Shown here: positions 2,380-18,934 of the stretch, piece by piece
Layout of the letters: each line of letters begins with the position of its first letter
How positions within the stretch are numbered: position 1 is the first letter of the stretch
From: Podarcis erhardii
Taxonomy: Eukaryota
Assembly (NCBI GenBank): GCA_964252035.1
Contig: OZ176200.1
Strand: one strand, 5' to 3'
DNA length: 64,000 nt
Position numbers and translations under genes: made by a program
Notes under the pieces: generated by a model
What the model was told of the DNA's origin: nothing
Database searches by the model: none
Seen by the model: the letters and a program-made list of their open reading frames with translations, nothing else

Positions 2380-4357
2380 TTTTTCATTTTTGTAAATATT
2401 TATTGAGATTTTTAAATACAAATGCAAAATTAGTAAACAATATAACATGTTTCATAACATAATTTCATAACTTCTTTGGACTCCCTCACGTCTCCCACTC
2501 CCACTTACATCATTATAAATTTTTGCCAGCAATTTATCAACTTGTTTGCATTCTTATGTCCCGCTCATTTAAATATAATTTAATAATTCTCCAAAAAGTT
2601 TATATTTTCCTCAGTCTCACTTATCATCCTAATTCCAACTATTTTAATGGTGCTCAATTGTTTGTGATCTAGCATCCTTATTAACATTCAACCAAATTAC
2701 AATATTTTTGTAGATAAATCTTGAATTTCTTCCAGTCTTCTTCAACCCTCTCCTCTCCCAGGTCTCGGATTCTGCCGGTCATCTCAGCCAGTTCCATATA
2801 GTCTATCAGTTGCATCTGCCATTCTTCCAGTGTGGGTAGATCTTGGGTTTTCCAATATTTAGCGATGAGTATCCTTGCTGCCGTTGTTGCATACAAGAAA
2901 AAAGTTCTGTCCTTCTTTATCACCTTCTGGCCGACAATACCCAGAAGAAAGGCCTCTGGTTTCTTAAGGAAGGTATACTTAAATACCTTTTTCAACTCAT
3001 TATATATCATTTCCCAGAAAGCCTTCACTCTAGGGCACGTCCACCAGAGGTGAAAGAATGTTCCTTCATTTTCTTTACATTTCCAACATTTATTATCAGA
3101 CAGATGGTATATTTTAGCAAGTTTAACTGGGGTCATGTACCATCTATATATCATTTTCATTACATTTTCCTTCAAAGCATTACAAGCAGTGAAGTTCAAC
3201 CCAGTGGTCCACAACCTTTCCCAGTCTTCAAACATGATATTATACCCAATGTCCTGTGCCCACTTTATCATAGCCGATTTAACCGTTTCGTCTTGTGTGT
3301 TCCATTTTAACAGCAAGTTATACATTCTTGAAAGTACCTTAGTCTTAGGTTCTAACAGTTCTGTTTCCAATTTCGATTTCTCCACCTGGAACCCTAACTT
3401 TTTGTCATTTTTAAAGACTTCTTTAATCTGAGCGTAGTGTAACCAGTCTCGCACTTTATCCTTTAATTTCTCCAAACTCTGCAATTTCCAATTGTCTCCA
3501 TCTTTTTCTAGTAATTCCCAATATTTTGGCCATTTGGCCTCCATATTGGGTCTTTTTCGGGCCTTACCTTCCAGAGGTGAAAGCCACCTTGGAGTTTTGT
3601 TTTCCAATAAGTCTTTATATTTTGTCCAGACATTAAACACTGCTTTTCTGACAATATGGTTCTTAAAGGCCTTATTGATCTTAACCTTGTCATACCATAA
3701 ATATGCATGCCAACCAAAAGCGTTATTAAAACCTTCCAGGTCCAATACGTCAGTGTCTTCGAGAAGTAGCCAATCTTTTAGCCAGCAGAAAGCTGCGGCC
3801 TCATAATACAACTTTAGGTCTGGCAGGGCAAAGCCCCCTCTTTCTTTCGCATTTAAACTTAATTCTGGGCTTTTTGCCCTGCCAGACAAACTTAGAGATG
3901 TCTCTCTGCCACTTCCGGAAGCACTCCGTCTTGTCCACAATCTGCAGTGTTTGGAACAAAAACAGCATTTTTGGCAATACATTCATCTTGATAGCAGCAA
4001 TTCGGCCTAACAAAGAAAGTTTCAGTTTTGTCCAACTGTCTAAGTCTCTCTTAATTTCTGACCAACATTTTTCATAGTTATCCTTAAATAGACTCAGATT
4101 TTTTGCTGTTATGTTTACCCCTAGGTACTTTACTTTTTTAACCACTTTTAATTCTGTCTCTCTCTGAAACCGTTCTGACTCTGTATCTGTCAATTTTTTT
4201 TCCAATACCTTGGTTTTCTGTTTGTTTAATTTAAAACCTGCTACCCAACCAAAGTCTTAAATCAATTGTAATACTCTTTTCGTACTAGATTCTGGCTCCT
4301 GCAAAGTCAAAACTAGGTCATCTGCAAAAGCTTTAAGTTTATATTGTTTCGCTCCGA
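2380..4357 (-). mobile_element. 5'-truncated L1-clade LINE (ORF2 RT through C-terminal CCHC domain, 3' UTR, short A-rich tail); inactive
   Basis: Minus strand reads KLKAFADDLVL (RT catalytic motif), YLGV, and CWKC...FHLWWTC zinc knuckle; ORF2 stop at 2681; one in-frame TAA and one frameshift near 3850; AATAAA and A-rich tail; flanked by the 19-bp duplication TTGATATCCCGCTTTATCA (2361-2379 and 4358-4376). Confidence 0.93.
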
Positions 4358-7830: not shown

Positions 7831-8298
7831 AGTAGACATAATAAAATTGCCATGGATAAATTCAACCATTTTGCTTTCTTAAAACACACACACAACCAAA
7901 TATAATTACATGCCTGGGTAGGCTTACCTAAACAAGATTTTTAGCAGGCATTGAAAACAGTAAATTGAAGACATCTGTCTAATATTAATGGGCAAAGGAC
8001 TTCCAGAATAGGTGTTGCCACACTAAAAGATCAATTTCTCTTTTAGTGTGGAACCAGCATTCTGTAGCACTTTTTAAATTGCCAGTTTCACAGATCAAAG
8101 CAGTGAAGTGGGTACAAATTGAGGAACGGATTTTTAAGCTTCAGAATTTTATGATATATACTACTAACATTTGTATTACCATTTAGAGTTTGTTTGCCAT
8201 TTGTAACGTTTACATTTGCCATCATTCTGAAGCTCCTTTTTAATCTGCTAGCAACCTATTTCTCTCCTCTCTCTTTCCAAGGTCTCCTGTTCATCAGC

Positions 8299-8485
8299 AT
8301 GACTCTCTGGATCAGATCTCTGCCTCTCCTAGCGCTGCTTGCTGTTTCAGCTCCTACTACTAGTTATGCTGTTCCCAATCAGCACCTATGTGGCTCCCAT
8401 CTAGTGGAAGCACTCTACCTTGTATGTGGAGAGCGGGGTTTCTACTATTCCCCCAAAACACGGCGGAATGTTGAACAGCCCCTAG
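8299..8485 (+). CDS. INS: Preproinsulin coding exon 1 (signal peptide, B chain, RR, start of C-peptide)
   Basis: [62 protein letters not shown]; phase-1 donor G|GTAACT at 8486. Confidence 0.99.
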
Positions 8486-8612
8486 GTAACTTTTCCAACT
8501 TCCTAAAAAGCATCAAAATGTTTTATACTATAGTTTCTTCATGAATGGCTCGTCCACGTTTCCACTTGTCCTGTGCCTAGAAAGCATGGATCCAAGTAGT
8601 TTTCCCTTTGCT

Positions 8613-13440: not shown

Positions 13441-15929
13441 GGCTTATCTGCATGCTTGCAAGTAATTAGAATTGTGGAGAAAGACAATACCAGCAGCTGT
13501 CAGGCACTTTGAGTTACATTCCCAGCATATTTAAAGCATTCAGATACCACAGGGATGAGTACATTATTAATGCTAGGAGAGCGGCGTTTTAAAGTTGGCA
13601 TCATGATCCTAGAAGGATATGTGGGGCAGCTGCATTTTAATAACATTCTCGGGGGCACTAAATAGCTCCCTGAGCACGCCTGTCATTCACATTGCTACTT
13701 TGATTTAGAAAACAAAACAATGAAGGTTCAATATTATATTAGAAGCAACAAAAGCACACCCCTGCTTTGTAAAATGGAGTTGCTGACAGGAAGAGGAAAG
13801 GAGGGGGAGAGAGGAGATGCAGCAGTAACGGTCCATGAGTTTGTTTCAGAAAACAGAGACACATCACAAAACACCCTTCTTTTTTAAAAAAAAAGGAAAA
13901 AAGAGGGACATGGTTGTGTGTTTGTGTGTCAATCTGTGCACACAAAGGGAAAGGGTGCAAAATGAAAGCCAGTTTCTCTTCCAAGCATTCCCCCCCCCCT
14001 TTTTTTTTTGGTGGGGCGGAGGCAGATCTAAATGTTGGGAAATTCTGATATCCATTAACCACACATGCCTGAGCATCCCCATGTTGCAGTTTTGTTTCTC
14101 TGAACAAAGCCTGCCTCTCTGGTGGTCCATGGATCTGCTAAAAACAAGAAGAGAATTCCAGTGATAATATTTCACCTTTTCAAACATATGCACACAAATA
14201 CTCACCAAGCAGAGAGGCAAGCTGTTTGCCTGTCACCCTGACATTTTTGTCCGTATCTGTGGTTGCCACTGATTCCACTCTGTCTGGAGAAGGTAAGCTG
14301 AAACAGTTGATACCCCTCACTGTGAAAAAAGACACACACACACACACACACACACGAAATGGTGGTCTCATTTGACTCCAGAATTGCAGCCATTTTCTTA
14401 ATCTCAGCCAGCTGGAGAGATCCTGAGGGACGCAACAGGTGGGTAATACGGCAGTGTCTTCTCCCTCCAAAATACAAAGAGCACACAGACACCCCACCCC
14501 CTGTTAAAATTGGTCACTGCCATCTTGTCATTCCTGGCTTAACCAAGGGCACCATTTAGGGCAGGAGGAAACCAGTCCTCAGCCCTGGCACAGACCATTT
14601 GTGATTATGGCTCAAAGAACTTTATTTCTGCCCAAAAAATTGCTCGCTATTGCCATAAACAATGAAATGTTTCTATCTATTAGGGCCAAGTAATTAGCCA
14701 TTCATACCAAAAATATTTAAATGTGACCATTTGACTTTTTCTGTTAACATGGTTATAGTTACACAATTTTCTCTCTCTGCTTTTGTACACTATCATTTTG
14801 AATAAATTCAACTGCAAGTCTGGCTGACTTTTACTCTCCTTATCTCCCCACCTTACCCCTGGCAAAATTTCTTTCTCGCTATCTCCCACCACTGACTCCT
14901 GAAATGGGGTGGAAGAGAAAATATCTAGCCTTAGCACTCAAGCCAGTTTTTAGAGGCTAGAACATGGGTCCAAAGTCTTTTTCTTCTTCTAGTTCAGCAC
15001 ATGCAGTATTGATAAGGTTTGTCCACTTCCGACAGCATAGCAACACGGACTGCTTTGATAGCGATCAAGCTGGTCTCTTTCTTTTATTGCTATCAGGAGC
15101 AAAAAGCCACATGCAGAGCCACTTGGGGAGGGTAATAATTGGCAAATGGCCACATAGAAAACCATATTTCATGCTTTTCAGCTGACAGTGGACCCTAACA
15201 GAGTGGAAACCGCCCCCCCCCCCGAAATCTGCCTCTCTTGGCTACTGACTGGAATTTGGAAGTCAGGCAGTATGGGCCAAATTGTTTGAAGATGGTCATG
15301 TGATCCTCTAATTTGAAGGGCTGTCAGAAGGCAGGCCTCTCTCTGAATGTGTCCTCTATTTGAAAGTTTGTCAGGTCCAAGTCCAGTTTAAAAGATAAAG
15401 AGTCGTAAAAAGTTGCCCATGAAAAGCACCAGACAGCAGACTGAACCGGCACACAAGTCAACTGAGCACATTCTTTCCCACTATAGTGACATGTGAGAGG
15501 AACTTCTAGTTAAATGACAGAAGATGCTTCTACACTTGCATATATATGTGTGTGGGTTAGCACATGTCAATTTAATGCAAACAAAAGTCCTCTTTTGTTC
15601 TCTTTTTTTGTGCTGCATTTCTTCTTCTTAGGCACTGCGCAAGTGTCCACCCTAGATTGTTAATGGACAGCTCCTTCACTCTGTTTGCTGATAAACTACA
15701 TTCTGCCATAGTTCCATCTCGTCTGGACTGCTTCCTCCAAGAACCTCTGGAATTCATTCAGAAAGTACTAAGTGGTGCATCAACTAAAGGGCCAAAAAAC
15801 ACTTTCTCATAAACAGCCTAGTATATTCTGTTTGAGAAGGGATGAAGAGAAAGAAGTATGGATAGAGATGAAGCAAGAGGGGTGGAGAAGAAAGCATATT
15901 GCTCTCCCAAATTGAGATTCCATAAATGG

Positions 15930-16497
15930 TGTGCTGGTCCAGGGGGGAGGTTACCGTGGGGCGAGGTCCAGGACCTGAGTTGAGGGTCGGCAGACAGTCC
16001 TCCTCGGGCGAAGTAGGGTTCACAGCGAGAAGCCGGGCAAGGACAGGAACTCTGGGGGAACAGGACAGGATGCTGGCCGAAACAGCTCTTCAACGATGTT
16101 GCTCCTGCAACCTGGGACCGGGCTGACTGGCCTTTATCTTCTCTGAGGCCAGGGGCGGCCCCGGCCCCCAGGAGAACCACCTCTCCTGGCCTTAAGGCGA
16201 GCACTCCTCCTGGGAGAAACCAGTTCCCTCCACCTCTCTGCCCTGAGCCTCTGCAGTACAGGAGAGGCTGAAGGGTTACTGGACCCAGGGGGAGACTCAC
16301 CTGTAGGCACTGAGTCCTCAACCACCTCCGGAGCCAGAGTGGATTCACCTGGTGCCTGATCCTGAGGATCTGGCACAGGTGCAGGCGCTTCAGAATCAAG
16401 GCTCTGCCCCAGTTCAGCCGGCCCTGGAGGCAGGGACTCCTGTGCAGGCTGGGATTCCTCCGGTTCAGCCTCTGAATCGGATTCCCAGGCCATCACA
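15930..16497 (-). mobile_element. Solo LTR (Gypsy/Ty3-like or other LTR retroelement), 568 bp
   Basis: TG...CA ends with 7/8 inverted match (TGTGCTGG vs CCATCACA); exact 5-bp TSD AATGG (15925-15929, 16498-16502); GC box and GATAAAG TATA-like motif on the minus strand. Confidence 0.85.
16134..16493 (-). CDS. Hypothetical LTR U3-encoded 119-aa protein (acidic/Pro-rich N-terminus, Arg-rich C-terminus with RRSARL)
   Basis: Open frame from an ATG 4 nt inside the LTR end to a TAA within the TATA-like motif; no evidence of expression. Confidence 0.35.
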   Translation of the reverse strand: MAWESDSEAEPEESQPAQESLPPGPAELGQSLDSEAPAPVPDPQDQAPGESTLAPEVVEDSVPTGESPPGSSNPSASPVLQRLRAERWRELVSPRRSARLKARRGGSPGGRGRPWPQRR

Positions 16498-18934
16498 AAT
16501 GGTCTTCCTCATTGCGGTTTGCAGTTCAAGATCTTCCTCTACTGGCCTGCCATTTTAGGAAGGGCTGTTCTGGAGCACCTTCAATCCAGCACCATTCATG
16601 ATTAGCAAAGGATTTATACAGAAAGACTGAGAAGTAATTGTGCCTCACTTAGTTATTCTGGGTTGCATACATAATACCAGGCATGATCAATGTGGGTTGA
16701 TTTCCACCCAACTGTTTAATGAGAATTTAACCCTTGCTCACTTTCTTTCTTCTGTTCCTCTCTGAATTGGTTATCTTGTTCCATTGCTCCCTCTTACATG
16801 CCCCAGTCCTCTGAGCTGTGTGGACTGGCTCTTTTACTTGAACCATCTGCACTGTTTTATTGAACCGCTATCCACCAGAGAGATGAAGTTCTAGGCCTAA
16901 TACACAAAACAAGAACTAACAAATCACCAGGCTGGGGCAGCTTCCACTGAGGCATGGATGGATAGGAGACAAGAGGGAAGAGAGGTGGAGTGGAAAGTAT
17001 AAGCAATTTCTCAAAGAACTCAAGTGTGAAAATGCTGACCTTCTAACAAAAATATGCAACTTGTCCCTTGGATCAGCCTCCATATCTGCGGACTTAAAAG
17101 TACCCAGTACAACACCCATTTCAAAGATGAGTTCAGGCACTGGGATCTGCCCCATATCTTTGGTCATGAGGACAGATGCAAAGGATCCATTCAGCTTCTC
17201 CTTATCCTCCTTTAGCATTCCTTTGACTCCCTTGTCATACAAGGGTCCAGTTGCCTCCCTGGATGGTTTTCTGCTACTAATATATTCAAAAACGTCTGCT
17301 TATGCAATGAGGCTTCCCCACACTCTCTTCACCATGTACACCCATTGAAATTGGCTATGGGAAAGCCAGGAAAACCCCCAGAATGGGGGAGGGGAAAATC
17401 ATTTCATCTCGCAAGGTAAAATGCTTGTGCTGATGGAAAGATCACCTTAATGTGACATTGAATTTCTTCCAAAATGTGCAACACTGCCCTCCATGTTCAG
17501 ATTCCAATCTTCAAATCATAGCTCTTCTCTGCTAGCAGAAAGACGCACAACATTTATATTATTTTCAAGAATGAGATCAAGAGAATGGGACAGGAACACT
17601 CCAACAGCCTGGGGATTCCCCTTCCATCACTCCAGAAATAGGGTGTGAGTCAAACTGACCATAACCTTCCCCTGTAGTTTTGCTATCCTCTGCTATTTGG
17701 AGAGACTGGGTATGGGATGACTATGCCTGCCCCTGCTTGACATACCAGCTATAAATACATTGTTGGAGTTAAGTACATAAAAGACAGAGATGAAAGAAAG
17801 CAACAGGGAACCAAGAAACTACGATGCAAGAACACACGGTTTAAAAATGCCACAGTCTTGTGAAATATATGCCTGTTTTACATGTGCCAAAGATCTCGCT
17901 CCTATGGTAGAGGTTCTGAAACTGGCATGTCCCTCCCCCACCACTTAAAATGTAAGGTGAAGATCAGATGTTCCTCATAGATAGTCACTTGTGCAGGGGC
18001 ATTCTTCCCTTCTCAAAAAGGGGGGCGGGTCAAGATCACATCAGTAGCAGATGGCATGGTGAGTGATGCTGCTCACCTGAGCTTCAGTCAGTTGTGTTGC
18101 TGCTACTTACAAGGGGGTTGATGGAGGTAGTGGTGAGGGCAGTGCAAAGGCACTGGCAGACCTGCTCTGGTGCTCCTGCTGATGCACTTGCACCACAGCA
18201 ACCTCCCTGCCACCTTGCCCCTTTTGGTAAGCTGCAAGAGTACAAGTGACCAGCCATCAGGTGTGTGGTGACACTGCATATATGGGCTTTTGCTTGGAAT
18301 ATACCCATCACATACTATATTACCAGTATGAGGCTGCACCCACTTCTCCATGATGGAACCAGGATATCAAATTTGGATAAGAATCCAAACTATAGACATT
18401 GCTTGTGTCATGAATTAAAAGGAAGGTGACTTGTGGAACACAGGAGATTTAGTTTATTATACCCAAACACTTGAGAATGAGGACCTTGCGGCACTGTTCC
18501 ATAGAGGTTGAAAACATTCTTCTCTCGAACCCAGCCAGCCAAATTTGGGTGCAGACGGGAATACTTCCATGCCTCAATCCTATTAATAAAATCAGAACAG
18601 GGATTCATATTTCAGAGAATTAATGCATCCATAGTCAGTGGTAACATAAACATCAAACAGCTCACTCATCTCTGTGTTTACACAGACCTAAGTTAGGAAT
18701 TCATTCCCAAATTGCAGCCAATCTTGGTTAAACTGTGTGAGAGATTTATTCCTAGAATGTTGGATTATGGAATTAATCTTTTCATTACATTCTAGCTTCA
18801 CTAAAACTAGAAAATAGTTGCTGGCATGTCAAGGGATAGTGAAATCTTCTGCCAAATCAAGTATTGGGAATGCCTTGTGTCAGTGATGGCTGACTTCTTC
18901 AGCTGGGAGAGGAGTGGACATGATCCCTAAGCCC

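Follow-up and report, generated by a model that had tools for sequence, protein, structure and literature searches.

Why should a solo LTR carry a long open reading frame that contains a candidate nucleosome-binding motif? The locus that raises this question lies in a 64,000-nucleotide stretch of contig OZ176200.1 (GenBank assembly GCA_964252035.1) of the lizard Podarcis erhardii, hereafter called the window. Here, a solo LTR with TG...CA ends and an AATGG target-site duplication contains, on its sense strand, a 119-codon frame encoding the hexapeptide RRSARL (Table 1). A preliminary description, made from the letters alone, had reported these features, and all of them were confirmed base for base. 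It offered two readings of the parent element: an accessory peptide encoded in U3 that tethers it to chromatin, or a C-terminal extension of pol that runs into the LTR.

Table 1. Features of the solo LTR and its flanks in the window (positions counted from the first nucleotide of the window)
Feature	Position	Strand	Basis or remark
Solo LTR, 568 bp	15930..16497	-	TG...CA on both strands; chromodomain Ty3/Gypsy family A, older subfamily A1
Target-site duplication AATGG, left copy	15925..15929	n/a	sequence
Target-site duplication AATGG, right copy	16498..16502	n/a	sequence
U3	16109..16497	-	U3/R boundary inferred from TATA-like box and self-priming site
119-codon frame, almost certainly the LTR-encoded C-terminal tail of Gag-Pol/integrase	16134..16493	-	parent elements, selection; ATG 4 nt inside the LTR end, TAA at 16136-16134
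Acidic, Pro/Ser-rich part, residues 1-79	16257..16493	-	composition: 17 D/E, 0 K/R, 16 P
Basic C-terminal part, residues 80-119	16137..16256	-	composition: 14 K/R
RRSARL, residues 95-100, HMGN-like candidate acidic-patch anchor	16194..16211	-	motif definition from PMC12487698 and PMC13347269, in part
TATA-like GATAAAG	16132..16138	-	sequence; contains the stop codon in the subfamily of the window copy
Inferred R start, 11-mer about 30 nt past the TATA-like box	16098..16108	-	pairs with the non-tRNA primer site that follows 5′ LTRs
R-U5, non-coding	15930..16108	-	subfamily alignment; rich in indels of all sizes between subfamilies

Taken singly, the window copy is unremarkable, because matched random LTRs give such a frame in 7.5% of cases. 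This is the proportion of 2000 first-order Markov resamples containing an ATG-initiated frame of at least 119 codons, and it bears out the earlier caution that a GC-rich LTR (62% GC in this case) favours long frames by chance. A sequence of the form RRSxR appears in any frame in 7% of 2000 resamples and in one given frame in 0.8% of 20000. A second frame over the LTR (15818-16492, minus strand) is open for 224 codons, and its ratios of 0.8-2.0, most of them exceeding 1, give no hint of selection. In a Pfam search, the 119-codon ORF matched no family at E values up to 10, the HMGN domain included, and a homologue search with the ORF alone gave one match among 51 candidates, a Podarcis chromodomain fusion. 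The ORF and motif of this copy are within the range of chance, and it is the family evidence that goes beyond it. The window copy is an older, decaying one, on average 4.4% diverged from its closest relatives. Most likely it yields no protein, because there is no pol ahead of the ORF and U3 lies upstream of the inferred start site. Elsewhere in the window, an insulin-family exon (PF00049, E 1.6e-12) is present at 8155-8544 on the plus strand, about 7.5 kb from the solo LTR. There is also a GC-rich stretch at 58-59 kb, which, going by synteny, may be the IGF2 promoter region.

An LTR search of the 1.5-Gb genome gave 2970 first-look candidates, 40 of which were scored. Among the best 30 scored copies, 23 are flanked by exact 5-bp target-site duplications and 4 by duplications with one mismatch, while the remaining 3 are LTRs of longer elements; the 119-codon frame is intact in 20 of the 30. 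Full-length matches are 95-96% identical to the window LTR. Copies of this family, designated family A, are found on many contigs, and the closest proteins, at 87-92% identity, are from Podarcis muralis.

Judged by its coding and priming sequences, the parent is a chromovirus (Ty3/Gypsy) of the Tf1/sushi group. A young sister element with a 1632-codon frame encodes capsid, protease, RT, RNase H, integrase and Chromo domains in this order (Pfam), and the same six domains are encoded by older parents of the window's own subfamily (Pfam). The chromodomain at the integrase C-terminus (PF00385, E 9e-15 in the young sister element) finds its best solved-structure matches in HP1/CBX chromodomains, and it keeps the three cage aromatics, as read from the sequence with the cage defined as in part of PMC3605345. 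Behind the 5′ LTRs lies a sequence without a TGG start, which can base-pair with the 11-mer located 30 nt beyond the TATA-like box (duplex of -22.1 kcal/mol, computed on a young sister element). It has the appearance of a self-priming site in place of a tRNA primer site, and self-priming has been described for the Tf1/sushi group (PMC6317226, in part). This arrangement supports the orientation and the U3 assignment made in the preliminary description; the strand call also agrees with the parent elements and with RNA reads from three RNA runs on a young sister element, which at low depth show chiefly the sense strand in the internal region. Family A resembles the V-clade chromoviruses Sushi-ichi and Amn-san in its Gag-PR-RT-RH-IN-chromodomain order, TG...CA LTRs, 5-bp target-site duplications and non-tRNA primer site. 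Amn-san is present in fish, amphibians and reptiles (PMC4131045, in part). The pol of family A continues past the chromodomain into the LTR, a feature absent from the descriptions of these elements that we consulted.

Almost certainly, the Gag-Pol frame crosses the polypurine tract and enters U3 of the 3′ LTR, and the 119-codon ORF is its C-terminal end. Young copies were surveyed by a Chromo-profile search, which is blind to the tail; it returned 30 loci, 2 of them host genes and 28 element loci. The junction is in frame at 25 of the 28 and RRSARL is reached in 24. Full-length elements were present in 8 of 13 fetched stretches, with LTR pairs 99.7-100% identical. All eight have frames of 1308-1632 codons ending in U3, and the Gag-Pol frame of young copies stops just past RRSARL. 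A larger set has 53 of 56 junctions in frame, a count partly biased towards frame by 30 loci that came from a protein query spanning the tail. In UniRef entries of Podarcis muralis, the chromodomain is likewise fused in frame to the U3 ORF. Since the frame is continuous from the chromodomain through the polypurine tract into U3, the ORF is an integrase C-terminal tail and not an accessory gene. Of the two readings offered initially, the pol extension is thus the one that holds. The tail encoded by the LTR adds about 116-129 residues to pol beyond the chromodomain. The stop codon was also said to fall exactly in the GATAAAG box. This is correct for the window copy and for some subfamilies only; young subfamilies stop 8 nt ahead of the box, and the overlap of stop and box in the window copy is therefore incidental.

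Among 30 mostly older parents picked for their similarity at the DNA level, 213 to 218 nt separate the chromodomain from the LTR ATG and the junction is in frame in 13, with no family-wide stop ahead of the LTR. The spread in spacing comes almost wholly from a G run in the polypurine region. This run differs in length between near-identical copies that lie on one contig and have an LTR deletion in common, which suggests slippage after insertion or assembly error. An out-of-frame junction would end pol 1-11 codons from the LTR start, yet the young copies retain the long frame.

Some further observations concern the distribution and annotation of these elements. A 30-Mb contig (C19), possibly the W chromosome as we infer, is over-represented for older internal sequences (13 of the first 30 junction loci), and some of its older elements are near-identical duplicates; 20 stretches making up a random 200 kb of this contig contained only 2 chromodomains, not enough to support a survey. 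The young family A elements L168 and L175 lie inside other retroelement pol sequences or adjoin a second copy. Three public gene models (P0003, P0005 and P0037) begin at the LTR ATG and are joined by splicing to gag or to a host receptor gene; these are likely prediction artefacts.

Family A is one of several chromovirus families in which pol reads past the polypurine tract. Family B has many frames of 1376 codons and reads 292 nt into its own 3′ LTR. Families D (L207) and E (L214) also read past the polypurine tract, the ends of their LTRs being judged from the junction and not from LTR pairs. Family C (L068, L083 and L094) has an ordinary non-coding LTR, and its chromodomain frame ends before the polypurine tract (two copies read through); it is a natural control. 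No RRSAR occurs in families B, D and E or in several LTR-entering tails of snakes and amphisbaenians. Given these motif-less tails and the tail-less family C, neither the tail nor the motif is needed in relatives. Families B, D and E have long acidic stretches ahead of the polypurine tract, and two cage aromatics are apparently absent from the family B chromodomain, as read by eye. A match of the window to the family E locus, at 3767-4139, is within a LINE-like fragment and hence not an LTR.

A chromodomain followed by a Gly-rich junction and then by an acidic stretch is found in the proteins predicted for Rhineura, Vipera, Crotalus, Naja, Salvator and Anolis. In an SH3-chromodomain tree of 39 rows, most squamate rows form one group, drawn open with 91/92 support, and family C falls outside it. 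The tree was built from fetched proteins; 18 of its 36 inner branches are open, and convergence and ancestry with losses look the same in it. By these sequences, the tail encoded in the LTR seems characteristic of a single squamate chromovirus lineage, with the motif being patchier. Fish chromovirus tails (P0170, P0174, P0185, P0190 and P0246) have RGRP repeats, which we take to be AT-hook-like, and close with a brief conserved sequence, R-x-P-S-P-[ED]-Y, whose coding sequence may be part of the LTR as well. In chromoviruses from soil metagenomes (L273-L352), probably fungal, an S/T/P-rich frame, possibly an overlapping gene, often extends 200-490 residues beyond the chromodomain.

In family A, the motif reads RRSARLKA, in the context SPRRSARLKA, and RRSARLQA in the oldest subfamily. 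The R-R-S-x-R core is present (residues 95-99), and the full HMGN consensus RRSARLSA is not matched, position 7 being K and not S. Decay could be expected to make 63 of the 90 alignable family A copies vary, and the commonest losses hit the CpG in the codon for the third arginine (there, 12 of 15 changes). No synonymous variant of the five core codons is shared across the family and their DNA is nearly invariant; therefore, family A alone cannot separate constraint on the protein from constraint on promoter DNA.

Other tails offer a comparison. Among 118 single-chromodomain retroelement proteins outside family A, the tails of three contain RRSAR[LI], against 0.008 expected in 7878 tail residues, a figure to be read with a search bias in mind: the queries contained the motif, the scored stretch excluded it for two ENA proteins, and P0161 came from a profile that included the other two motif-bearing proteins. 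All three matches have the form RRSAR[LI]xA and stand 4-7 residues short of the C-terminus; a looser RRSxR is not seen in any of the 118. One of the proteins is from Anolis, with the motif RRSARIAA, and two are from ENA, for which the LTR location of the tail is deduced from the protein; the three tails are otherwise dissimilar to that of family A. RRSxR was found in 0 of 69 tails of soil-metagenome chromoviruses. Two degenerate DNA pattern searches found no second motif family with other codons in this genome. In the first, 16 of the 17 matches were one RRSAS repeat with no long frame and no LTR look; the second gave 6 matches versus 8 in the control, and none of the 3 inspected was an LTR. 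An Atlas search did not find the lizard tail, and for the Anolis tail it gave only matches below 0.8, which are not leads.

The motif has tested counterparts among nucleosome-binding proteins. The cryo-EM structure of HMGN2 models RRSAR only, and Dsup binds through PPRRSSRLT; AlphaFold 3 fails on HMGN2 with the nucleosome (PMC12487698, in part). Yeast Dot5 binds through RRSARIAT, all three arginines being required, and both Dsup and Dot5 also deviate from RRSARLSA past the core (PMC13347269, in part). Family A shares with these proteins the RRSAR core, with its three arginines and serine: PPRRSSRLT of Dsup compares with SPRRSARLK in family A, and RRSARIAT of Dot5 with the Anolis motif. Unlike HMGN, the tail has K at position 7 and no HMGN domain, and the candidate motif stands at the end of a retrotransposon polyprotein. 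The recurrence of the motif in dissimilar tails lends support to the HMGN-like acidic-patch reading first put forward from the window copy.

These comparisons lead us to favour, with moderate confidence, the following mechanism. Protease would release an integrase that retains the chromodomain, an acidic linker and a basic end. The chromodomain would read the methylated H3 tail, and RRSAR, as an arginine anchor, would bind the acidic patch of H2A-H2B. The acidic Pro-rich part would be a flexible linker, and chromodomain and anchor together may tether the integration complex to nucleosomes. From its composition, this part is likely a disordered linker, and in-frame length differences are tolerated in it between subfamilies. 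Viral arginine anchors on the acidic patch, as proposed for the family A tail, are found in PFV Gag, KSHV LANA and CMV IE1. Unlike these Gag or latency proteins with other sequences, the family A candidate is in the integrase frame, beside a histone-mark reader, and encoded by the LTR. The anchor of PFV Gag shapes integration sites, and lost tethering redistributes them (PMC9040877, in part).

A simpler function for a real integrase tail would be that of a nuclear localization signal or a non-specific DNA/RNA-binding patch, with RRSARL being just one of many basic sequences able to serve. This is consistent with the tails of families B, D and E and of Rhineura, Vipera and Crotalus, which are acidic and then basic with other basic sequences, and with the RGRP repeats of fish relatives at the tail position. 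It is also consistent with the motif label on the 39-row tree, which needs four changes and is not clustered (82 of 500 shuffles are as low). However, a generic patch would not be expected to converge on one spelling, and all three RRSxR matches outside family A have the stricter form, at the C-terminus, and match motifs tested on the acidic patch. We therefore regard the basic-patch function as unlikely, though deserving of serious consideration, and prefer the acidic-patch anchor.

It could also be argued that pol merely runs on in a GC-rich U3 to the first stop, with the tail tolerated and the constancy of the motif due to a promoter DNA element. The ease with which long frames arise at this GC content, the open second frame, the near-invariant motif DNA and the tail-less family C all fit such a run-on, and what weakens it, already for the tail as a whole, is selection. 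In pairwise comparisons of single copies, young A2-type versus A3 (6 non-independent pairs), the U3 tail has a dN/dS of 0.35-0.40 and differences of 7/7/19 by codon position, with 1.1-2.0 in the other sense frames. RT-RH-IN, with a corresponding dN/dS of 0.05, is much more constrained than the tail; the chromodomain and linker come to about 0.3. An analytic neutral model with transition and CpG bias gives an expected pN/pS of 0.77-0.96, and against this model the synonymous share has a probability of 0.007-0.035 and the third-position share one of 0.002-0.004. Net between-subfamily pN/pS is 0.38-0.66 in the pol frame in 10 of 10 contrasts (five subfamilies, the contrasts being non-independent), and 0.82-3.2 in the two other sense frames. 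Within subfamilies, pN/pS is 0.52 in A1, 0.72 in A6, 0.32 in A2 and 1.10 in A2b; because it is below 1 in A1 and A6 as well, the contrast with neutrality is modest.

Family B, for which three pairs were run, gives, in one pair, a tail dN/dS of 0.23 with codon positions 17/15/41 (P about 5e-5 or less). In this family (L098 and L099), the last 55 codons have a dN/dS of 0.12 in one pair, the end of the tail being strongly conserved. The third-position excess is thus confined to the pol frame, in two families. Length changes tell the same story: the motif's offset relative to the LTR start is divisible by 3 (0, +30, -18 or -12) in 80 of the 90 alignable copies, in a set of 106 copies including 16 without an alignable motif region. 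Subfamily changes such as +30 and -18 nt preserve the frame, whereas indels in R-U5 are of every size. Automated indel counting had scored 3 of 9 ‘shared’ events in U3 and 11 of 52 in R-U5 as divisible by 3; it split the +30 insertion and was therefore dropped as a frame test, and net offsets were used. The U3 tail is under purifying selection, and the signal is real but modest. The random frameshifts and dN/dS near 1 that the preliminary description named as refuting its reading are not what related LTRs display. Together with the long frame held by young copies in spite of the early stop that awaits a shifted pol, this makes a tolerated run-on improbable.

Highly improbable, finally, is a separately translated accessory peptide of the sag or nef type, made from a spliced RNA or by re-initiation at a TGATG stop-start overlap: families A and D do have an ATG at the LTR edge, several squamate proteins show V-M, and the shifted pol of 9 of the 30 older parents would stop at a TGA overlapping the LTR ATG, but the junctions of young copies are in frame as counted above (the larger count with its partial frame bias), no stop lies between chromodomain and LTR, shifted copies differ almost only in the slippage- or error-prone G run, families B and E have no ATG there, and the ATG of family A is part of the LTR-terminal TGTGATG. 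The three RNA runs on the sister element list no splice joint into U3, at an internal-region depth of 0-4 that is too shallow to weigh on either side. In MMTV sag and lentiviral nef, coding sequence in U3 belongs to separate genes on spliced RNAs; the U3 frame of family A, unlike these, is continuous with pol.

The closest known parallel to an integrase tail encoded by the LTR comes from plants. In group A of the plant CRM elements, pol runs into the 3′ LTR, where a targeting domain is encoded (PMC3059260 and PMC3605345, in part), and an extension into the LTR is likewise seen in some Bingo elements of beet that have a type II chromodomain (PMC3605345, in part). Family A is similar in that its polyprotein frame enters the 3′ LTR. 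It differs from CRM group A, in which the CR motif replaces the chromodomain, by keeping a true chromodomain with the tail added behind it, and by its animal host and different motif. In the literature consulted, that is, leaving subscription papers, supplements and repeat databases aside, we found no vertebrate LTR-encoded integrase tail and no HMGN-like motif in a retrotransposon; the portions of PMC3601003 on LTR structure and of PMC4131045 on frog Amn-san that we consulted do not mention such a tail in vertebrates. A pol that enters the 3′ LTR is therefore known from plants, and the new feature, credible from the sequences compared here, would be a sushi-type chromovirus with a selected U3 tail and a candidate HMGN-type anchor.

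The U3 region of family A doubles as promoter DNA and coding DNA, a dual use in an animal retrotransposon. This explains the long ORF in the solo LTRs of this genome (2970 first-look candidates), as well as the ‘chromo domain-containing’ or chimeric gene models produced by gene predictors. For annotation, such LTR ORFs are better treated as pol tails than as genes. The choice of insertion sites by vertebrate chromoviruses is usually credited to the chromodomain alone, and the selected tail is a possible second determinant. More tentatively, and with rather less confidence than for the mechanism in family A itself, vertebrate chromoviruses may several times have made U3 encode an HMGN-type arginine anchor, giving integrase a two-point grip on the nucleosome that steers insertion. 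If true, a retrotransposon integrase would be using the motif of HMGN, Dsup and Dot5, and the tail would be the animal equivalent of the CR targeting domain that the LTR encodes in plants.
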